Origin: Candidatus Limnocylindrales bacterium
Lineage (GTDB): Bacteria; Chloroflexota; Limnocylindria; Limnocylindrales; CSP1-4
Length of the DNA stretch: 35,675 nt
NCBI GenBank assembly: GCA_046712485.1
Contig: JBKKCW010000035.1
Coordinates: 1-35,675 of the forward strand
Direction: 5' to 3'
How positions within the stretch are numbered: position 1 is the first letter of the stretch; each line of letters starts with the position of its first letter. A program made the position numbers and the translations under genes. Below, in pieces: positions 1,720-27,519 of the stretch. Under the pieces are notes generated by a model. It saw only the letters and a list, made by a program, of their open reading frames with translations. It did no database searches and was not told the DNA's origin.

Positions 1720-4305
1720 CTACACCGGATCCTTGGCCAAGTGGCGCTGCATCGCCGCCTTGCGTGACAGGTTCACCCGGCCCTGGCGGTCCACCTCGGT
1801 GACGACGACCATCACCTCGTCGCCGACGGATACGACGTCCTCGACGCTCGGCACGTGGTAGTCGGCGAGCTCGCCGATCCGGACGAGGCCCTCCTTGCCG
1901 GGCAGGATCTCGACGAACGCGCCGAAGCCCATGATCCGGGTGACCTTGCCCAGGTAGAGGGCGCCGATCTCCACATCGCGGGTCAGACTCTCGATCCACT
2001 GGATCGCCTTGCGCGAGTTCTCGGCAGACACGGCCGCGATTTCGACCGTGCCGTCGTCCTCGACGTTGATCTCCGTCTGCGTCTCCTCCTGGATCTTGCG
2101 GATCATCGATCCACCCTTGCCGATGATCTCGCGGATCTTCTCGGGGTTGATCTTGATCGTGATGATCCGGGGAGCGAAGTCGCTCATCGACTCGCGAGTT
2201 TCCGGAATGACCTCGGCCATCTTGTCGAGGATCTGGAGGCGAGCTGTCAGGGCCTGCTTGAGGCCATCGCGGATGATCGCCTCGCTGATGCCCTGGACCT
2301 TGATGTCCATCTGCAGGGCGGTGACGCCGTCGCGGGTCCCGGTGACCTTGAAGTCCATGTCGCCGATCGCATCCTCCTTGCCGAGAATGTCGGTCAGGAC
2401 CACGAACCGGCCGTCGGATTCGCTGATCAGGCCCATGGCCGCTCCGGCGACCGGTGCCTTGATCGGCACACCGGCGTCCATGAGCGCGAGCGTCGAGCCG
2501 CAGGTCGAGGCCATCGAGGTGGACCCGTTTGACGTCACGCACTCCGACACCAGCCGGATCACGTACGGGAATTCCTCCTGCGTCGGCAGGACGGGCACGA
2601 GCGCACGCTCGGCAAGGTGGCCGTGGCCGATGTCGCGCCGGCTTGGGCCGCGCATCATCTTGTTCTCGCCCGTCGAGTACGGCGGGAAGTTGTAGTGGTG
2701 GAGGTAGCGCTTCTCGGTCTCGGGGCTGATCGTGTCGATCCGCTGGACATCCGAGGACGCACCCAGCGTCGCAACCGTCAGTGCCTGGGTCTCACCGCGG
2801 GTGAAGAGACCCGAGCCGTGGGCGCGTGGGACGAGACCGACCTCGACCGAGATCGGTCGAATGTCCGTCAGGCCGCGGCCGTCGATCCGGATCCCCTCGT
2901 CGAGCACGATCCGGCGAACCGTCTTCTTCTGGATCAGATTGAACAGGGCCTTGCTGACCCGCGCCTGGCGTCGCGCGGCTTCGAGAAGCTTGGCGGTGTC
3001 TCCCCCGGTCCTGTTCGCTCGCACGGCCCCGGCGATCGACTCACGCAGGGTCGCGATTCGACCCGGGAGGTCGTTCGCGAACCAGAGCAGGAGGTTGGCG
3101 GTCGCCTCGGCGTCGGCGAGGGCACGATGGCCCTGGGCGAGCTCGACGCCGAAGAACCTGGCCAGGTCGCCGAGCTTGTACGACTCGGCACCGGGATACC
3201 CATCACGGGCGATGATCAGCGTGTCGATGTAGGAGCCGGGCCGGACACGGAACCCGTCGCCCATGGCCTCTTCGATGAAGCCGATGTCGAAGCCCACGTT
3301 GTGCCCGACGACAAGGGCATCTGGACCGATGAAGGCGAGCAGCTTCTCGGCCGCTTCCTTGGGGCTCGGGGCGCCCTTGACGTCCTTGTCGGTGATGCCG
3401 TGCATCTGGTTGCCGACGATCGGTCGCCCGGGGTTGACGAAGGTGGACCAGCGATCCACGACCTTGGTGCCCTTGACCTTGACGGCCGCAACTTCGAGCA
3501 GGTCCGCCATCTTGGGATCGGTCCCGGTCGTCTCCACGTCGATGACGACGAGCTCGCGCTTCGCGTCGGTGGCGTCGGCGAACTCGAGCACCGAATTTGT
3601 CGAAGGCTCGAGGTACGGGATCCGCTTGGCCTTGCCCATCGCCTGCTGAAGCTCCACCTGGAGATCAACGATCGGCTGGAGTGCGCGATGACCGAACAGG
3701 ATGGCCTCGGCCATGACCGCTTCGGGCAGGAGGTTGGCGCCCGCCTCGACCATCATGATCGCGTCCTTGGTGCCGGCGACGATCAGGTCGAGCTCCGAGT
3801 CAGCGAGCTGTGTGTGCGTGGGATTGACGACGAACTCGCCGCCGATCCGCCCAATCCGCACCGAGCCGATCGGGCCGTTGAACGGGATCTCGCTGATCGT
3901 CAACGCGGCGGACGCAGCGATCGTGCCGATGACGTCCGGGTTGTTCTCCTGGTCCGTCGAGAGGACGGTGATGACAAGCTGGACGTCGTCCTTGTAGCCC
4001 TCGGGGAACAGCGGCCGGATCGGCCGGTCGGTCTGGCGGGCGGCAAGGATCGCGTTCTCGGACGGTCGCGCCTCGCGTTTGATGAAGCCGCCCGGGATCT
4101 TTCCCGCGGCGTACATTCGCTCCTCGAAATCGACCGTGAGCGGGAAGAAGTCGAGGCCGGGGCGCGGTTCGGCTCGGTTGGCGGTGCCGAGCACCATGGT
4201 GTCGCCGTAGCGAACCGTGACCGAGCCGCCGGCGAGGCGGGCGAGCTTGCCGGTCTCGATGGTCAGCGTGCGACCACCAAGCTGCGTTTCGAACGTCTGG
4301 GACAA
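1720..4305 (-). CDS. pnp: Polyribonucleotide nucleotidyltransferase (PNPase) with an inserted DEDDh exonuclease domain
   Basis: The ORF track gives 1720..4401. I place the start at TTG 4305, which sits 9 nt downstream of AGGAGG; this gives MSQTFETQLGGRTLTIETGKLA, the normal PNPase N-terminus. E. coli pnp also uses a UUG start. Recognisable parts are RNase PH domain 1, RNase PH domain 2 (SNGSTSMASTCGSTLALMDAGVPIKAPVAGAAMGL, GDMDFKVTGT), a KH domain (GKGGSMIRKIQEET) and an S1 domain (YLGKVTRIMGFGAFVEILPGKEGLVRI). The protein is about 861 aa against about 700-740 aa for typical PNPases. The excess is the insert listed next. Confidence 0.95.
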   Translation of the reverse strand: MSQTFETQLGGRTLTIETGKLARLAGGSVTVRYGDTMVLGTANRAEPRPGLDFFPLTVDFEERMYAAGKIPGGFIKREARPSENAILAARQTDRPIRPLFPEGYKDDVQLVITVLSTDQENNPDVIGTIAASAALTISEIPFNGPIGSVRIGRIGGEFVVNPTHTQLADSELDLIVAGTKDAIMMVEAGANLLPEAVMAEAILFGHRALQPIVDLQVELQQAMGKAKRIPYLEPSTNSVLEFADATDAKRELVVIDVETTGTDPKMADLLEVAAVKVKGTKVVDRWSTFVNPGRPIVGNQMHGITDKDVKGAPSPKEAAEKLLAFIGPDALVVGHNVGFDIGFIEEAMGDGFRVRPGSYIDTLIIARDGYPGAESYKLGDLARFFGVELAQGHRALADAEATANLLLWFANDLPGRIATLRESIAGAVRANRTGGDTAKLLEAARRQARVSKALFNLIQKKTVRRIVLDEGIRIDGRGLTDIRPISVEVGLVPRAHGSGLFTRGETQALTVATLGASSDVQRIDTISPETEKRYLHHYNFPPYSTGENKMMRGPSRRDIGHGHLAERALVPVLPTQEEFPYVIRLVSECVTSNGSTSMASTCGSTLALMDAGVPIKAPVAGAAMGLISESDGRFVVLTDILGKEDAIGDMDFKVTGTRDGVTALQMDIKVQGISEAIIRDGLKQALTARLQILDKMAEVIPETRESMSDFAPRIITIKINPEKIREIIGKGGSMIRKIQEETQTEINVEDDGTVEIAAVSAENSRKAIQWIESLTRDVEIGALYLGKVTRIMGFGAFVEILPGKEGLVRIGELADYHVPSVEDVVSVGDEVMVVVTEVDRQGRVNLSRKAAMQRHLAKDPV
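3067..3558 (-). other. DnaQ/RNase T-like DEDDh 3'-5' exonuclease domain inserted in-frame inside pnp
   Basis: Exo I is LVVIDVETTG. Exo II is LVVGHNVGFDIGFI. Exo III is GHRALADAEATANLL. The surrounding sequence also fits the epsilon-like pattern (FVNPGRPIVGNQMHGITDKDVKGAP, KLLAFIG). It is flanked N-terminally by the first helices of the PNPase alpha domain (LFGHRALQPIVDLQVELQQAMGKAKR). It is flanked C-terminally by the remainder of that domain leading into PH2 (LFNLIQKKTVRRIVLDEGIRIDGRG). Confidence 0.85.
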
Positions 4306-4388
4306 AGTAACTGCTCCTCCTGATCGTGCGGAGGAGGCGACGACCCGCGAGCAGGTCGGCCGGCTGGGCCTGGCGTCACACGCGACGA

Positions 4389-4409
4389 GACCCCGGCACA
4401 TCCGGGGTC
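4389..4409 (-). promoter_or_regulatory. 8-bp GC-rich hairpin in the rpsO-pnp intergenic region (candidate rpsO attenuator or pnp leader processing structure)
   Basis: The sequence is GACCCCGG-nnnnn-CCGGGGTC, a perfect inverted repeat 15 nt downstream of the rpsO stop and about 85 nt upstream of the pnp TTG. It is followed by TCGTCGCGTGTG, which is only a weak U-tract. Confidence 0.4.
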
Positions 4410-4423
4410 CGGTTGCGGATCGC

Positions 4424-4693
4424 CTAGCGGCGGAGCCCGAGCCGTCCGATGACGACTCGATAGCGCGCGCTGTCCTTCTTCATCAGGTAGGCGAGAAGGC
4501 GGCGGCGTTGGCCGACGAGCTTGAGGAGGCCGCGGCGCGAATGATTGTCCTTGGGGAAGCTCCGGAGATGTCCGGTCAGCTCCTTGATCCGCTCCGTCAG
4601 GAGCGCGACCTGGACCTCCGGGGAACCGGTGTCACCTTCCTTGGTGGCATACCCGGTGATGATCTCCTGCTTCTCTTCCCGCGCCAGCGGCAC
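4424..4693 (-). CDS. rpsO: 30S ribosomal protein S15
   Basis: An 89-aa [73 protein letters not shown]. It has a GTG start 5 nt after GGAGG. Confidence 0.97.
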
Positions 4694-5482: not shown

Positions 5483-6286
5483 TCACCGAAGCGTCGTTGG
5501 CACCTCGCCCGTGAGCTCCACCGTGACGCGCGTTCCCAGCGTCACGTCGGCGCGCAGGAACGCGACGCCACGATCGATGCGCAGACGACCCGGTCGCCCA
5601 TCGACCTGGCAGGTGTACTCGCCGGCCGGCGGAAGCGCCATCGGCAGCTCGAATGCCAGTCCGACGCCGTCGGGACCCTCATCGGCCACCATCCCTGCGA
5701 GTGTGACGCTCCGGCCGAGCAGCGCTGCGGCACCCGCCAGGTTTCCAGCGGCGATCTCGAACCGGATGTCGGAGCTCCGCACGGCGCGGCCGTCCAGCGT
5801 GAACGGTGGGACGACCACCACGTCAAACCGGAGTTGTCGGCCGAGCTCGGTCAGTGCGTCCGGGGTGCCGCGGCGTTCTCACCCGAACGCCGCGTCTGGT
5901 GTCATGAGAAACCCGCGGAGATCGACCCGATCGCGGATACGCCCGACGAAGACGTCGTACGGCGTCTCGCGCAGCGCGGCATCAAAATGCTGGACGACCG
6001 TCACCGCCACGCCGGTGTCCGCAAGGCGCTCGAGCCGTTCGCCCGGATCCAGGAGCAACGGCGGCGCCTGCCCGGCCAGCACCTCGTCGGGATGGTGGTC
6101 GAAGGTGATCACCATGGGTCGCGCGTCGCGCACTTCCGCTTCGCTCACGAGGTAACGGAGCAGGTAGAGATGGCCCAGGTGCAGGCCGTCGAACACCCCG
6201 ACGACGACGAATGCTGGGCCGTCGACCGGGGAGAGGCCGTCAACACCGTGGACCACCTGCATCGTGGAGCCGACTCGATCGGTCAT
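5483..6286 (-). pseudogene. ribF: RibF (FMN adenylyltransferase / riboflavin kinase-like), a single reading frame interrupted by an in-frame TGA at 5879-5881
   Basis: The ATG at 6286 overlaps the truB stop (ATGA). The N-terminal FMNAT motifs are GVFDGLHLGHLYLL and ITFDHHP. The sequence then reads ...MTPDAAFG-TGA-ERRGTPDALTELGRQLRFDVVVVPPFTLDGRAVRSSDIR...LLGR..., so track ORFs 5879..6706 and 5483..5821 are the same frame and the same gene. The C-terminal kinase-like part is short and lacks the PTAN motif. Confidence 0.75.
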
Positions 6287-7238: not shown

Positions 7239-8255
7239 TCAGCGACTGACGGTAGCCACGAGCCGCGTAGCCTCGGCGAGCACGGACGGCCGGGCATCTG
7301 CCAGGGGCGCGGCGACCGTCGCCCCGGCGGCTCTCGCATGGCCACCACCCCCAAAACGTCCGGTCAGCACCGTGGCGTCCACGCCTCCCGGCCGGGTGCG
7401 GACGCTGATCCGGGTCTCCTTGGACCCGGTTTCCTTGAACAGGATGGCCACCTCGGCCGCCTCCGCTTGTGAGAGGAGGTCGATCAGACCCTCCGAGTGA
7501 GCGCGTTCGGCACCCGTCTCGGCGTAGTCCGCATCGAACACGCTCGACCAGACGATCCGGCCGTTGTCGGCACTCTCGAGCCGAGCGAGAATCCGCCCAA
7601 AGAGCTTGAGCTGGGCCTCGGGCTTCGACCGATAGAGACGGCGCGAGATGTCCGAGAGCGGTGCGCCGCCCTCGATCAGCCAGGCGGACACGGTCAACGT
7701 CCGGGGGGTCGAGTTGGGGTGCGCAAAGGTGGCGGTGTCCATCACGATCCCGGCCATCAGGTTCGTGGCGAGGTCAGCCGCGCAAGGGTCGACCCCGAGA
7801 CGGGCGGCGAGCAGGGCGACCATCTCGCACGTAGCCGCTGCGTGTGGCTCGATCCAGTCGGCTTCGCCCGCCGCATCGTTCGAGGCGTGGTGATCGATGA
7901 TGACCCGCGGGATCCGCTCGAACAGCTCGGCATGCCGAACACCGAGTGACCCGATCCGGTCGAGCGAACCGCAATCGACGATCACCGCGAGGTCATACGT
8001 CGCCCCTTGATCGGGATCGGGGCGGACACGCTCGACGCCGGGCATGAACGCGTAGACTGTTGGTACGGGGTCGGCGCACACCGGATCGGCCATGCCCCCC
8101 AGCGCTTCCACGAGCTGGACCACGCCGAGCGCCGCCCCCAGCGTGTCGGCGTCGGGGTTCTCATGGCTGACGGCAAGCACGCGACGAGCGCCGCGCAGAC
8201 GGGCGATGACCACCTCGGGCACCGCCGACAGATACGGCTCCAGATTGACTGTCAT
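7239..8255 (-). CDS. nrnA: DHH/DHHA1 phosphoesterase, NrnA-type nanoRNase/pAp phosphatase
   Basis: A 338-aa ORF. The DHH motifs are SHENPDADTLGAALG, VIVDCGS and IIDHHASN. The DHHA1 motif GGGGHARAAG lies near the C-terminus. Its position between rbfA and truB matches actinobacteria. Confidence 0.85.
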   Translation of the reverse strand: MTVNLEPYLSAVPEVVIARLRGARRVLAVSHENPDADTLGAALGVVQLVEALGGMADPVCADPVPTVYAFMPGVERVRPDPDQGATYDLAVIVDCGSLDRIGSLGVRHAELFERIPRVIIDHHASNDAAGEADWIEPHAAATCEMVALLAARLGVDPCAADLATNLMAGIVMDTATFAHPNSTPRTLTVSAWLIEGGAPLSDISRRLYRSKPEAQLKLFGRILARLESADNGRIVWSSVFDADYAETGAERAHSEGLIDLLSQAEAAEVAILFKETGSKETRISVRTRPGGVDATVLTGRFGGGGHARAAGATVAAPLADARPSVLAEATRLVATVSR

Positions 8256-10992: not shown

Positions 10993-12408
10993 CTACGACG
11001 CCACCTCCTCGGCGGCTGCCTTGGTCGCGACCTTGCGGGTGCGCTTTGCCTTGGCCGGTTCGGCCGCCTCGGCTGGCGGCTTCGCCTCCGAGGCGGTCTT
11101 CGATCTCTTGCTGGCGGCGCGTTTCGGCTTCGCCGTCTCGACGGGCACGGCTTCGGCGGCTGCATCGATCGCGTCGGGTCTCTCGACGTCGACAGCGGCC
11201 GGGTTCTTCCTGGTGCGTTTGGGCTTGGCCTCCTCGATGGCGTTCCCGAGCGCGCCGGCAGGCGTTTCGGCGACCGTCGCGAGGTCGGCGGGCGCGGTCG
11301 ATGCCGGTACGAGCGCCGCATCGGGCGCTGGGGCAACAGCAGTGGATTCGGCATCGGCGGCGGCCCTGGCCTCGGCCACGGAGACGTCACTTCGGATGTC
11401 GATCCGCCAGCCGGTCAGGCGAGCGGCCAGCCGGGCGTTCTGGCCCTCGCGACCGATGGCAAGCGACAACATCCGCTCGGGGACGGTCACGCTGGCGATC
11501 CGGTGCTCCTCGTCGATGTCGACCGAGATGACCTGCGCTGGGCTCAACGCATTGGCCACAAAGACCGCGGGATCGTCGCTCCAGGGGATGACGTCGATCT
11601 TCTCCCCCGACAGCTCGGCCACCACCGCCTGGACCCGCGCCCCACGCTGTCCGACGGTCGCGCCGACAGGGTCGAGTCCGTCCTGCCGCGACGCAACCGC
11701 GATCTTGGAGCGGCTGCCGGCTTCACGCGCGATCGCCTTGATCTCGACCGTGCCGCTATGGATCTCGGGGACCTCGAGCTCGAACAGGCGCTTGAGAAAA
11801 CCCTTGTGGGTGCGGCTGACGAAGATCTGCGGTCCCCTGGTCGAGCGCCGGACCTCGAGCACGAACGCCTTGACGTTCTGCCCGATGCGATAGTGCTCGA
11901 GGGCGGACTGTTCGGTCGTGGCGAGGATCGCTTCGACGTTCTTGCCGACGTCGAGGATGATGGCTCGCGGCTCCACCCGATTGACGGTGCCGTTCATCAG
12001 CTCGCCCTCGCGGCTTGCGAACTGGTCAAAGACCTGGTCGCGTTCGACCTCGCGAATGCGCTGGAGGACGATCTGCTTTGCCGTCTGTGCGCCGATCCGA
12101 CCGAACACGTCGCCGTCGAGCTGCTCGGTCTCGACAAGGTCGCCGACGCCCGCCCCCGGGTCGATGGCCTTGGCCTGGTCGACGGTCATCTCCGTGAATT
12201 CGTCCTCGATCTCGCCGACGACGCGGCGTGCGCGAAAGACGCGGATCTTGCCGGTCTCGGCATCGATCCGGACATGGATGTCCTCATCACCGGCCACGCG
12301 CCGATACGCCGACTGGATGCCGTCCTCGACCGCCCCGATCAGCTGCTCGCGCGAGATCTGCTTTTCAGCGTTGAGTTGCAGGAGGGCACCGACGAAGTCA
12401 CGACTCAC
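10993..12408 (-). CDS. nusA: Transcription termination/antitermination factor NusA with an Ala/Pro/Lys-rich tail
   Basis: A 471-aa ORF with a GTG start 5 nt after GGAGG. It contains the N-terminal domain, an S1 domain (GELMNGTVNRVEPRAIILDVG) and two KH domains (RSKIAVAS..GLDPVGATVGQRGARVQ; AIGREGQNARLAARLTGWRIDI). A 128-aa low-complexity tail follows. Confidence 0.97.
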   Translation of the reverse strand: MSRDFVGALLQLNAEKQISREQLIGAVEDGIQSAYRRVAGDEDIHVRIDAETGKIRVFRARRVVGEIEDEFTEMTVDQAKAIDPGAGVGDLVETEQLDGDVFGRIGAQTAKQIVLQRIREVERDQVFDQFASREGELMNGTVNRVEPRAIILDVGKNVEAILATTEQSALEHYRIGQNVKAFVLEVRRSTRGPQIFVSRTHKGFLKRLFELEVPEIHSGTVEIKAIAREAGSRSKIAVASRQDGLDPVGATVGQRGARVQAVVAELSGEKIDVIPWSDDPAVFVANALSPAQVISVDIDEEHRIASVTVPERMLSLAIGREGQNARLAARLTGWRIDIRSDVSVAEARAAADAESTAVAPAPDAALVPASTAPADLATVAETPAGALGNAIEEAKPKRTRKNPAAVDVERPDAIDAAAEAVPVETAKPKRAASKRSKTASEAKPPAEAAEPAKAKRTRKVATKAAAEEVAS

Positions 12409-12451
12409 GATGGCCTCCGTTCCGTGAGTGCAGTTCGTATTTAGGGCCGCT

Positions 12452-12480
12452 CAAAAAAGAAACGTGGGGGTCACCCACGT
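12452..12480 (-). terminator. Intrinsic terminator in the nusA leader
   Basis: The minus strand reads ACGTGGG-TGACC-CCCACGT (7-bp stem, 5-nt loop) followed directly by TTCTTTTTTG. Its U-tract ends 44 nt upstream of the nusA GTG and it begins 266 nt downstream of the ispG stop. Confidence 0.6.
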
Positions 12481-12506
12481 AGCGGAGCGGCCGTTCAGTT
12501 GGGCGA

Positions 12507-12535
12507 AGTATACACCCGGACGCGTGGACGCTCAA
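12507..12535 (-). promoter_or_regulatory. Candidate sigma-70-type promoter upstream of the nusA leader terminator
   Basis: The minus strand reads TTGAGC, then exactly 17 nt, then TATACT. The predicted transcription start is about 20 nt upstream of the terminator hairpin. Confidence 0.4.
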
Positions 12536-12745
12536 CGGGTGACGCTGGCTGGCCCGCCCGGACGTCGCGCCGGGCGACCTCCATTCACGCGGGTCGTCCC
12601 AATCCTGAAATTTGTCGCTCTGGTGACCGTTGGGCTGTTTTCTGGCTGTCAACGCACCCATCGGACAACCCGCCGACCTCAGGGGCGAGCGTGCAAGCGG
12701 AACACGATCATCGCGCTCGGCGTGGTGGCCCTGCTGGTTGCGGCA

Positions 12746-14011
12746 TCACGTTACTGGTGCAGCTGCTTCGCTAGCGGCACTGGCAGCGGGGTACTTGCGC
12801 GCGACGTAGTCCTCCAGCAGCTCAATGAACTCGGCGACGAGGCCGTCGCCGCGCAGGGTCCGATCGAGGCGGCCGTCGATGAACACCGGGGCGACCGGCT
12901 CCTCGAACGTGCCGGGCAGGCTGATCCCGATGTCCGCGTGTTTCGACTCACCCGGGCCGTTTACCACGCAGCCCATGACCGCAACGCGCAGCTCCTCAGC
13001 GCCCGGATGTGCTTCGCGCCACTCGGGCATGCGCTCCTTGAGATACGCCTGGATCTGTTGGGCCATCTCCTGGAAGAACGTGGACGTCGTGCGGCCACAG
13101 CCGGGGCAGGCGCTGACCTGTGGCAGGAACGAGCGCAGACCCATCGACTGGAGCACCTGCTGGGCGACCTCGACCTCGCGTTCGCGCGGTGCGCCAGGAT
13201 CTGGTGTCAGCGACACGCGGATGGTGTCGCCGATCCCCTCGTTGAGCAGGATCGCGAGACCCGCCGTGGAGGCAACGATCCCCTTGTCGCCCATGCCTGC
13301 CTCGGTCAGACCGAGGTGGAGCGGGTAGTCACTCCGCGCGGCGAGCAGCCGGTAGACGTCAACGAGGTCGCGCACGCCCGACACCTTGGCCGACAGGATG
13401 ATCCGATCGTGCCCGAGCCCGGTCTCCTCGGCCAGCTCGGCCGAGCGCATCGCCGACTCGAGCATCGCGTCGATCATCACGTCCCGCGCGTCGCGAGGCT
13501 CCGGGGACCGGGCGTTGGCATCCATCAGCTCGGTCAGGATGGCCTCGTCGAGCGAGCCCCAGTTCACGCCGATCCGCACCGGCACGTCGTTGGCGATCGC
13601 GATCCGGACGATCGTCGCGAAGTGCTCGTCGTGTCGCTTCGCGCCGACATTTCCCGGATTGATCCGGTACTTCGCCAGAGCCGCGGCGGTTTCCGGGTAG
13701 TCCACGAGAAGCTTGTGCCCGTTGTAGTGGAAATCGCCGATGATCGGGACGTCCACGCCCAGGCCACGCACCTTGCGGACCATCTCGGGCACCGCGGCCG
13801 CCGCCGCCTCCGTGTTGACGGTCACGCGCACAAGCTGTGAGCCCGCGTGGGCGAGCCGCGCGACCTGGATCGCGGTCGCGTCCGCGTCCGCGGTGTCCGT
13901 GTTGGTCATCGACTGGACGACGATCGGGTGGGCGCTCCCGACAAGGACACCCCCGACATCGACGCTGACCGTGGGACGCCGCCGCGGACGGAGGGCCTCC
14001 TGCCCGCTCAC
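12746..14011 (-). CDS. ispG: 4-hydroxy-3-methylbut-2-en-1-yl diphosphate synthase (IspG/GcpE)
   Basis: A 421-aa ORF. Motifs: [30 protein letters not shown], and the C-terminal Cys cluster ACPGCGRT...GCVVNGPGE. The GTG start overlaps the rseP stop (GTGA). Confidence 0.97.
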
Positions 14012-25686: not shown

Positions 25687-27519
25687 CTACTTGACGGTGA
25701 CGATGACGGTCGAGCGACTCACGTCGCCCGCGACGGCGCTCGAACCGATCAACGCGTCGATGGGGACGAGGAACGGCCTGATGTCCGTCTCGTACTCGGC
25801 GCGCTCCGCCGGATCGGCGTTGGACATGGCGCCTTCGATGAGCTCCCGGACGGCGGTGACGTCGACGAAGCCGCTGCCCGTCCCCTGCCCCACCCGCGAG
25901 ATGAGCGCCTCGTAGCGGTCAGTCCTGGCGAGCGAAGTGTCCGGCGTGGTATCGAGGACGCTCCTCACGAACCCAGGCCCTGAACCCAGAACGACAACCT
26001 GATCCGTCACGGCATAGGCAAGCTCGACACGGCCAGCTGGCACGCCCGTTCCCAACATTTCGGGTGAGACGCCGGCCATGCCAGCCAGCCCGGCAAGGTC
26101 GGACAGCTCCCCGAGGTCGACGATCGTGATGGTTGTGCCCGCGTACGCCTCGTCGCGCACGGTGACACCCATCCCGGTGCCGCCCAGCGAGACGAGCGTT
26201 CGCAGGCTGGTGAACAGACGCTGGGCGGCAGCACTGTCCGTCGGTGTGATCACGAGACCACCCTCCACGCCGTTCCCCGTCCGGGTCACGGCCATCCCCA
26301 GGTCGCCGATCCAGCCGATCGCCGCGTCGGTCCCGCCGAGGACTCCGATCGCCTGATCGAAACCGTCGACGAACTCCTTGAGGCTCGGCTCCGCCCGGTA
26401 CGTATCGATGGTCTCGAGGATGCCCGCGCCATAGTCGTGGCTCACCGAGAGCGCGATGGCGCTGCTCGGCACGTGCTCGGCGACCGCCGAAGTGCGGGAG
26501 GCGGCCGCTTCGCCCTCCGGCGTTGGTGCGAGCGACTCCATGCGAAGCGCGTCGCCCTCGACCCGGAGCGCGAAGGCCATCCAATCGGGGACGAGACCTG
26601 TCAGGACGTCGCTGCCCAGACCGGGCATGCCTTCGCCACTCAGCTTGCTGGACCACTCCATGAGTGGTCGCAGGGCGAGATACACGAACCCGATGTGGTC
26701 ACCGGCGGTGGCATCGAGGGCTGCCTTGAACACGGGCGTCGTCGCGAACGTTCCCGTGCCCTTCGTGTCGACGGCCGCCTTGACGGAGACCGGGTCGCCG
26801 ATGACCGCGACCTTGCCACCGAGCACCGCGTAGGCGCCGGGCGGCTCATTGGCTCCGGCGAAATGGTGGATCGTCGCGTCGCCGTAGCTCTCGGTCGATC
26901 GTTCCGAGCCGCTCTCGCCATCGGCGATGGCCGACTCGAACCAGGCCCGGGCGGCCGCTTCGTCCTTTACCGAGACAAGACCGAGGAACCTGGCTTCCTC
27001 GAGGTTTGGATCAGCTGAGTCGACGGAGCCTGGGTCGGGCAGTGCGCCGACGCTGAAAGCGAGCTGCCCGGCGAACCACGGCTTGATGTCCGCGCTGAAC
27101 GTCTCATTTCCGGCGGTTGCCTCGCCGACGAGCCGGTCGAGGACTTCGTCGATCTTGGTCTCGATCGTCGACTGGTCCGCGAAGCCCGGGAACTTGGAGA
27201 GAAATTCGCCGACCGCCTGACGTTGATCGCCCGGCAGGTCCATCCGGAATTCGCCGTACATGATCGAGTCGCTCGGGACATACCCGAGGACGGTGGCATC
27301 CGCGGCGCGGCCGCTGAACAGGCTGAACGCCAGCGCGGATACGACGACAAGCACGCCGATGATGCCGGCCGCGATCATCCAGCGCTGACGTCCGGCGCTT
27401 GGATCGACCTGTGTGGTTGGCACCTGGGACGCGAGGACGTTGGCTTCCGTGAAGCTGCCGGCGGTGGTGTCGGCCCCATGCGGCGGCGTGATCGTGGTTC
27501 TGTCGAGATCGTCGGTCAT
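25687..27519 (-). CDS. Uncharacterised membrane-anchored protein with a large extracytoplasmic domain (possibly DUF3352-like)
   Basis: A 610-aa ORF. The ATG lies 23 nt after the ffh stop, with GAGGGGAG upstream. It has a ~45-aa N-terminal region, one predicted transmembrane helix ([22 protein letters not shown]), and then ~540 aa with no catalytic motif I recognise. Third-position G/C bias is like its neighbours. The DUF3352 assignment is from memory of the N-terminal pattern and is not verified. Confidence 0.8.

Follow-up and report, generated by a model that had tools for sequence, protein, structure and literature searches.

The stretch of DNA analysed here (35,675 nt, hereafter the window) comes from contig JBKKCW010000035.1 (assembly GCA_046712485.1) of a Candidatus Limnocylindrales bacterium of lineage CSP1-4. 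It carries a pnp gene for a polynucleotide phosphorylase (PNPase) in which a DEDDh (DnaQ-like) 3′-5′ exonuclease domain is embedded. The window features for which coordinates are given below are on the minus strand. In the list of open reading frames for the window, the gene lies in a single unbroken frame (1720..4401). The coding sequence (1720..4305) encodes 861 aa, from a TTG start at 4305 to a TAG stop at 1720-1722, both codons having been checked. This confirms the frame, start, and stop given in an earlier note made on this DNA, which had described one uninterrupted frame of about 861 codons from TTG 4305. The Shine-Dalgarno sequence AGGAGGAG is 8 nt upstream of this TTG and the orthologues all begin at the matching residue, therefore TTG 4305 is taken to be the functional start of pnp.

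The protein is a genuine member of the PNPase family, whose domain plan, PH-alpha-PH-KH-S1, is kept all the way from bacteria to human mitochondria. Pfam matches above the gathering scores were found for RNase_PH (twice), RNase_PH_C (twice), KH_1, and S1. The PNPase equivalog models TIGR03591 (949.1 bits; cut-off 525.05) and NF008805 (947.3 bits; cut-off 471) both match in two stretches divided by the insert. The first RNase PH core, PH1 (aa 1-225; 3631..4305), is covered by RNase_PH and RNase_PH_C. Its FFRR-type channel loop reads GGFIKRE, and its loop 64-79 is disordered in the AlphaFold2 (AF2) model, as is usual for PNPase. In the second, catalytic core, PH2 (aa 481-700; 2206..2865), the motifs RRxIGHG, GS(S/T)SM, and DxxGxEDxxGDMDFK align to PDB entries 5yjj and 8zaw, and the phosphate- and metal-binding residues R556, R557, H561, S595, S597, D645, D651, and K653 are intact. 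The RNA-binding KH (aa 713-772) and S1 (aa 778-849) domains follow (1759..2169). Ratios of non-synonymous to synonymous substitution (dN/dS) are 0.13 for PH1, 0.10 for PH2, and 0.12 for KH and S1.

When the full structural model is compared with the PDB by Foldseek, the matches are exclusively PNPases (top TM-scores by target, TMt, of 0.73-0.91), and in the same search no solved PNPase spans the insert (TM-scores by query, TMq, ≤0.67; targets ≤730 aa). Canonical bacterial PNPases, such as those of Escherichia coli, Caulobacter crescentus, and Streptomyces antibioticus (GPSI; PDB 7ogk, 4aim, and 1e3p), share with this protein the family, the position after rpsO, the PH1, PH2, KH, and S1 domains, every phosphorolytic and metal-binding residue, and scores above the equivalog cut-offs. 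They differ in being without the approximately 155 extra residues that form a second catalytic domain here and in having a complete all-alpha domain, the N-terminal half of which is unrecognisable in the window protein. Among the PNPase family features that were sought, a complete all-alpha linker (PF03726) was the one not found.

Between the two RNase PH cores lies the insert (aa 250-413; 3067..3558), which is a member of the DEDDh superfamily by Pfam, by sequence search of the PDB, and by Foldseek, and which is modelled with high confidence (predicted local distance difference test, pLDDT, 87-97). RNase_T (PF00929) matches aa 253-406 (3088..3549) with 113.6 bits against a cut-off of 24 (E=1.8e-32), over the whole of the model (positions 1-164 of 164), and E=4.1e-33 is obtained when the insert alone is scanned. 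The three Exo motifs read VVIDVETT, GHNVGFDIGFIE, and GHRALADAEA. The acidic pair of Exo I (3532..3540), in VIDVETTG, is made up of D256 (3538-3540) and E258 (3532-3534). The Exo II aspartate, D340 (3286..3288), is in HNVGFDIGF, and Exo III-epsilon (3112..3129), in GHRALADAEA, supplies H393 (3127-3129) and D398 (3112-3114). These five residues align to the catalytic residues of PolC and DinG. The block at 3067-3558, its three Exo motifs, and the catalytic set D256/E258/D340/H393/D398 had all been put forward in the earlier note. The boundaries and motifs are exact and each codon is where it had been placed. An exonuclease-family match over the block, the lack of which would have spoken against the proposal, is thus present. 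Of the domains that a scan had been expected to return, RNase PH (twice), KH, S1, and RNase_T are all found, but the alpha domain is partial and scores just under its cut-off.

For PF03726, the match is limited to aa 447-477, which correspond to the last third of the model (positions 50-80 of 81), and at 24.5 bits it falls just short of the cut-off of 24.6. In comparisons with solved PNPases, residues 1-221/254 and 422/453-852 align and the stretch between is without counterpart. The nearest PNPases that have no insert, from a sister lineage described below, have 76-87 residues between the anchors equivalent to K227 (GKPK) and R464 (KKxxRR), versus 234-239 in the insert-bearing family. The net added length relative to the sister lineage is approximately 155 aa, in keeping with the 130-160 codons beyond typical PNPases that had been estimated. 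The insert is preceded by an N-terminal connector (aa 226-249, AKRIPYLEPSTNSVLEFADATDAK; 3559..3630; dN/dS 0.31), which has no counterpart in the alpha domain of the sister lineage and in which an AF2 helix (237-247) leads into the DEDDh fold. It is followed by the residual all-alpha domain (aa 414-470; 2896..3066), with three AF2 helices after a kink at DLPG that lead into PH2. The N-terminal linker helices of the sister lineage are unrecognisable in the insert-bearing family and PF03726 is only partly matched, therefore the alignments indicate that the DEDDh domain has taken the place of the front part of the all-alpha domain or has reshaped it. Thus the earlier placement of the block as internal, between PH1 and PH2 and not an end-to-end fusion, holds, with the refinement that the block does not simply part two intact sets of linker helices.

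In the AF2 model of the full protein (pLDDT 83.5; predicted TM-score, pTM, 0.76), a canonical DEDDh alpha/beta fold comes after helix 237-247 and is followed by helices at 395-433, 437-448, and 452-470. Confidence is low in those loops whose flexibility in PNPase was known before. For the module on its own (aa 225-472), pLDDT is 91.5 and pTM 0.88, and in this model helix 395-433 is split at 411-412 (DLPG). This helix is therefore read not as one rigid, 39-residue element but as the closing helix of the DEDDh fold and the opening helix of the linker, joined via a kink. Together with the three linker helices that remain, the DEDDh domain is predicted to make up a single compact module.

The architecture is real, to a degree of confidence that is close to certainty. 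A search of 5.8 billion proteins, grouped at 90 % identity, found at least 120 clusters (P0001-P0120) of 859-878 aa and at least a further 118 (P0271-P0388) were found among the relatives of P0121, a representative described below, at least 238 in all, every one with PF00929 and PNPase domains. These originate from JGI, ENA, NCBI, and Logan assemblies and include long-read contigs of 1-3 Mb. Likewise, 338 relatives were obtained from the species representatives of GTDB, and all of the best 80 loci that were examined, some on contigs of up to 3.1 Mb, encode pnp with the insert. These best 80 loci are from Chloroflexota metagenome-assembled genomes (MAGs) of the Limnocylindria type. In the genomes of the family this pnp is always downstream of rpsO.

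Prior caution about metagenome assemblies is a reason to consider whether the block is instead a product of chimeric or faulty joining in assembly, or of a recent mobile insertion peculiar to one contig, although no evidence for this was found. The same architecture is repeated on hundreds of independent contigs, the junctions are identical in 58 full-length genes from different species, in all of which the five DEDDh residues are invariant, the base composition of the insert equals that of its flanks, the insert and core trees co-vary, and those copies that are interrupted have their indels outside the insert. The probability of a chimera is therefore considered negligible. The interrupted copies are six (L007, L008, L026, L033, L045, and L062), each broken by single +/-1 frameshifts and all from one long-read MAG series (MFD). 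Both halves of each are 88-95 % identical to the window protein, therefore these look like sequencing errors, at homopolymers or as other indels, and not like pseudogenes. A sequence with 59 % identity (P0244) was considered as a deeper or degenerate member of the family and set aside as an artefact, being a singleton riddled with frameshifts. In a UBA5189 MAG (L057, approximately 5749-5933), about 61 aa of extra sequence are present in frame within S1, between the positions equivalent to residues 793 and 797 of the window protein, for which a genuine insertion and an error of assembly are both possible.

Conservation was assessed in a set of 239 sequences that includes the freshwater Limnocylindrus clade, which has 69 % identity overall and approximately 55 % in the insert. 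D256, E258, D340, H393, and D398 are invariant in 239 out of 239, as are T259, G261, F339, and other motif positions of the insert, and as are the eight PH2 residues listed above. Together with the Pfam matches, this bears out the earlier statement that PH1, PH2, KH, and S1 are intact, and orthologues with degenerate DEDDh residues, which would have pointed to a decayed domain, were not seen among the 239. Divergence within the set reaches 52 % in the insert and 27 % in the core, and the insert evolves approximately 1.5 times faster than the core. In pairwise comparisons the insert has a median dN/dS of 0.21, versus 0.12 for the rest of the gene, with similar dS across the pnp regions. The alignments thus show both catalytic centres, the phosphorolytic one of PH2 and the two-metal, hydrolytic D-E-D-D-h one of the insert, to be intact and under purifying selection.

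The G+C content at third codon positions (GC3) is 0.886 in the insert, 0.884 in PH1, and 0.886 in PH2, which agrees with the earlier view that the composition is gene-like and does not suggest a recent acquisition, and the distances between sequences in the insert and in the core are correlated (r=0.84). Taken together, the invariance, dN/dS, GC3, and this correlation support one ancient acquisition followed by vertical descent, with the catalytic apparatus kept by selection.

It could be argued that the chemistry of the insert is irrelevant and that it serves only in structure or regulation, acting as an enlarged lid over the portal for inorganic phosphate (Pi) and nucleoside diphosphates (NDP) or as a platform for protein docking. 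The all-alpha domain that it replaced adjoins the phosphorolytic site and is thought to gate and regulate the access of Pi and NDP (PMC6181284), the linker carries non-enzymatic expansions in other PNPases, and the faster evolution of the insert would fit such a role. If the domain were purely structural, the loss of some catalytic residues would be expected, yet all five, and T259, G261, and F339, are invariant despite divergence of up to 52 % across the insert, and its dN/dS is 0.21. This explanation is therefore considered very unlikely. In keeping with the conserved motifs, the insert is very probably catalytically active.

The expansions referred to above are seen in a marine sediment sequence (P0145) and in a eukaryotic transcriptome (P0239), which have approximately 150 aa of helical or low-complexity sequence in the linker between the PH domains. 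Because such expansions exist, this linker is considered to tolerate length variation. These two are among several over-long PNPases (also P0132, P0134, and P0190), some of which have three S1 or three KH domains.

To investigate the taxonomic range, 1.84 billion representatives at 50 % identity were scanned exhaustively with HMMER, and the top 150 matches were listed, down to approximately 522 bits. An independent DEDDh insertion in a more distant PNPase (less than approximately 45 % identity) would lie outside this list. Among the matches listed, a single full-length representative aligns in one stretch across the insert (P0121; 864 aa, 69 % identity). The relatives of P0121, every one with PF00929, bear the labels 'Candidatus Limnocylindrus sp.' and 'Candidatus Limnocylindrales'. 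The other matches listed are fragments of the insert-bearing family or ordinary PNPases with alignments split at approximately aa 221-254 and 422-453, and none of the other over-long PNPases listed has a DEDDh domain. The earlier note had proposed mapping the spread of over-long PNPases, and the homologue searches place this architecture in Limnocylindrales, which suggests that, within the search depth reached, it is confined to this order of the Chloroflexota.

The closest PNPases without the insert are the P0126 group, of approximately 740 aa and 54-57 % identity, with PF03726 intact and labelled 'Candidatus Limnocylindria bacterium'. It was considered whether these might be a second copy in the same genomes. 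This was rejected, since one of them, P0427, is also directly after rpsO, as is pnp in the window. Sharing the same rpsO-pnp slot, the insert-less PNPases are regarded as orthologues in a sister lineage and not as paralogues, and pnp here would be the single, orthologous PNPase of the organism. On this phylogenetic distribution, the insertion appears to date from the base of the order Limnocylindrales or from earlier, inside the class Limnocylindria. The taxon labels are those of the submitters. Three contigs with pnp of approximately 90 % identity are labelled Anaerolineaceae (L015), Candidatus Eisenbacteria (L035), and Candidatus Dormiibacterota (L053), and these are probably mis-binned or mislabelled Limnocylindrales contigs. 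According to the source data of PMC13212565, families of this uncultured order reach a relative abundance of approximately 10-30 % in certain datasets from soil, sediment, and freshwater; RNases are not mentioned in its main text.

Within the DEDDh superfamily, the closest relatives of the insert are exonucleases of the DNA-type proofreading and DinG kinds. The PDB sequence search returned PolC (9qpc and 2p1j), DinG (8zef), DnaQ (8h18), and Cas2-DEDDh, with the PolC exonuclease as best match (E=6e-24, approximately 36 % identity). In NCBIfam, the insert matches the PRK07883 DEDD exonuclease with 142-146 bits, DinG with 128-132, and PolC with 126. When the module is compared by Foldseek with the PDB, the matches are the exonuclease domains of Staphylococcus aureus DinG (SaDinG) and PolC, DnaQ, epsilon, RNase T, ExoX, ExoI, Orn, and TREX2. 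The top neighbour is the DinG exonuclease of S. aureus (8zef; E=1.3e-12), and the probability is 1.00 for 8zef, 9qrn, 8h18, 2gui, RNase T, and ExoX.

The names DnaQ/epsilon, PolC, DinG, RNase T, and Orn cannot be given to the insert at the level of the family, because the scores are far below the curated cut-offs. For DnaQ/epsilon, the name in use at JGI, 76-80 bits are obtained against 222.7 (TIGR01406) and 65-69 against 196 (NF004316). The domain also sits inside a PNPase and has no epsilon C-terminal segment. For PolC (NF001688; 126 bits against 873) and DinG (NF005981; 128-132 bits against 789), only the exonuclease portion is matched. RNase T was likewise rejected (2f96 matches part of the domain with E=5.4e-4, and the structural rank is 12 or lower), as was Orn (structural rank approximately 48), the rnt and orn models being absent from the 25 best NCBIfam matches.

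The best explanation of these data is considered to be a bifunctional 3′ exonuclease, phosphorolytic and hydrolytic, that acts on RNA, and this reading is held with a confidence a little better than even. In it, an ancestor of the Limnocylindrales would have gained a DnaQ-like DEDDh domain inside the helical linker between the RNase PH cores. By analogy, the protein probably keeps the trimeric ring of PNPase. If it is a trimer, like all PNPases, three DEDDh modules would therefore be at the usual all-alpha position. RNA would be captured by KH, S1, and the ring, and the DEDDh site would carry out phosphate-independent, Mg/Mn-dependent hydrolysis of those 3′ ends that are poorly handled by the phosphorolytic channel. 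Candidate substrates would be limit products of 2-5 nt, elsewhere the job of Orn/REXO2, and short 3′ tails beside structure, elsewhere the job of RNase T. Both, along with DNA 3′ ends, are speculative roles that had been put forward in the earlier note. The outcome would be a covalent phosphorolytic-plus-hydrolytic decay machine. There is precedent for the components of such a mechanism, in that the alpha domain of human PNPase can contact the RNA substrate (PMC12685370), a separate DEDDh enzyme, REXO2/Orn, clears the short products left in division of labour with PNPase (PMC7261184), and the related DEDDh domain of SaDinG degrades both RNA and single-stranded DNA (ssDNA; PMC12345164).

Alternatively, the insert may act on DNA or on RNA:DNA hybrids, trimming either the 3′ ends of DNA or the RNA within a hybrid while KH and S1 bind single strands, so that PNPase would have been co-opted for 3′-end resection or repair or for removal of R-loops or primers. 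PNPase has reported roles at DNA ends in Bacillus and mycobacteria. The best family and structure matches of the insert, the PolC proofreader, DinG, DnaQ/epsilon, and Cas2-DEDDh, are DNA exonucleases, which is why the DNA option is kept, and the DinG of Bacillus subtilis (BsDinG) degrades ssDNA and the RNA strand of hybrids and leaves linear single-stranded RNA (ssRNA) uncut (PMC12525004). Both of these observations also weigh against RNA as the substrate, as does a gene for a DHH/DHHA1 protein resembling NrnA-type nanoRNase/pAp phosphatases (7239..8255), between rbfA and truB and four genes upstream of pnp, from which a dedicated nanoRNase may be present already. Because of this gene, a role of the insert as a nanoRNase is weakened, though not excluded.

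In contrast, the host of the domain is a fully conserved RNA-decay enzyme in an rpsO-pnp operon, within a cluster of genes for translation and RNA processing, and there are no linked repair genes in the window. Furthermore, the DEDDh subfamily is a poor guide to sugar specificity, as RNA is a substrate of SaDinG, and DNA of RNase T and REXO2. Since SaDinG cuts both ssDNA and RNA, subfamily resemblance leaves the specificity unsettled. Action on DNA or hybrids is considered unlikely, and RNA is, by a slight preference, the expected physiological substrate of the insert.

A stronger form of the RNA reading, in which a 3′ end or limit product would be passed from the phosphorolytic site directly to the DEDDh site, borne on the remodelled alpha domain, in a covalent, exosome-like, dual-mode machine, is possible but rather doubtful. 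If it is true, processive RNA decay would be freed from the supply of phosphate and finished to mononucleotides within one homotrimer. This would be a previously unknown bacterial coupling of two chemistries, in lineages of oligotrophic soil and freshwater.

Several known systems resemble parts of this arrangement. The proofreading domain of PolC is also a DEDDh domain inserted internally in a larger nucleotidyl-transfer enzyme, but its host is a templated DNA polymerase, its substrate is the end of a DNA primer, and the polymerase, PHP, and clamp-binding elements of PolC are absent from the Limnocylindrales PNPase. Gram-positive DinG has the same Exo I/II/III-epsilon motifs and has its DEDDh module fused to a nucleic-acid motor enzyme, but as an N-terminal fusion to a superfamily 2 (SF2) helicase and not as an internal insertion. 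Its substrates vary by species, being ssDNA and RNA for SaDinG versus ssDNA and hybrid RNA, and not linear ssRNA, for BsDinG. The eukaryotic exosome with Rrp6 unites an RNase PH-type ring with a DEDD-superfamily 3′-5′ exonuclease. Likewise, the Caulobacter degradosome has a PNPase ring and a DEDD-superfamily hydrolytic exonuclease, RNase D, in one assembly (PMC4245959). Rrp6 and RNase D differ in that both are DEDDy enzymes with HRDC domains and are held by protein-protein contacts, not encoded within the ring subunit.

Orn and REXO2 are obligate dimers. They belong to another DEDDh subfamily, with Orn approximately 48th by structure, and are polypeptides separate from PNPase. Nevertheless, the pathway of PNPase with Orn/REXO2, in which phosphorolysis by the PH ring is followed by a DEDDh hydrolase that finishes the short products (PMC7261184, PMC9779919), is the closest functional analogue of the proposed mechanism, membership of which is not claimed.

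Full-text literature searches and targeted reading did not bring up any PNPase described as having a DEDD/DnaQ domain, in agreement with the earlier note, which knew of no characterised PNPase of this kind, and the known variants of PNPase that were seen add only RNA-binding domains or unstructured extensions. The architecture, real, ancient, and clade-defining, is thus apparently undescribed. It places a second nuclease active site within a ring subunit of PNPase, held under selection across a whole order. Should the insert act on RNA, the protein would be the equivalent, in bacteria and in a single polypeptide, of the exosome with Rrp6 and of PNPase with Orn/REXO2, and a simple recombinant system for studies of the hand-off between phosphorolysis and hydrolysis. 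Should it act on DNA, PNPase would be linked directly to the processing of DNA ends.

In public databases, most of the clusters P0001-P0120 and P0271-P0388 are named 'DNA polymerase III epsilon subunit family exonuclease' by JGI/IMG, and the insert-bearing proteins are named 'polyribonucleotide nucleotidyltransferase' by NCBI. Under either name one half of the protein goes unseen, and surveys of metagenomes could miscount dnaQ and pnp as a result of the JGI name.

The leader of pnp contains a candidate regulatory element. In the rpsO-pnp spacer (4306-4423), a hairpin (4314..4337) is predicted by folding, in which the anti-Shine-Dalgarno sequence CCUCCUCC (4330-4337) pairs with the Shine-Dalgarno GGAGGAG (4314-4320). 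The anti-Shine-Dalgarno motif is upstream of pnp in 71 out of 74 Limnocylindrales species, and compensatory variants (CCUCUG/CAGAGG) are present in L038 and L051. The Shine-Dalgarno of pnp is paired in 52 out of 61 minimum free energy folds versus approximately 46 % of shuffles, which is moderate support. RNAalifold returned no structure for the leader, from an alignment with register shifts, the hairpin is absent from the leader of the insert-less sister pnp (L081), and an Rfam scan found no family in the window. The hairpin is proposed as a candidate translational element, possibly for autoregulation.

The window as a whole is a core housekeeping segment, with smc, ftsY, ffh, a DUF3352 gene, rnhB, rpsB, a pyrH-like kinase gene, uppS, cdsA, dxr, rseP, ispG, nusA, infB, rbfA, the DHH/DHHA1 gene, truB, ribF, rpsO, pnp, and asd, and among these genes there is no sign of a mobile element or defence island. 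The canonical upstream partner of pnp, rpsO (4424..4693; GTG start), encodes ribosomal protein S15 of 89 aa, with 64 % identity to the S15 (PF00312) of L081, the gene for which precedes the insert-less pnp. Downstream synteny differs, with asd following pnp in the window and, in the sister lineage (L081/L082), an RNase J gene (11093-12766) approximately 3 kb downstream of pnp. The DUF3352 protein of the window (25687-27519; 610 aa) is encoded between ffh and the rnhB/rpsB region.

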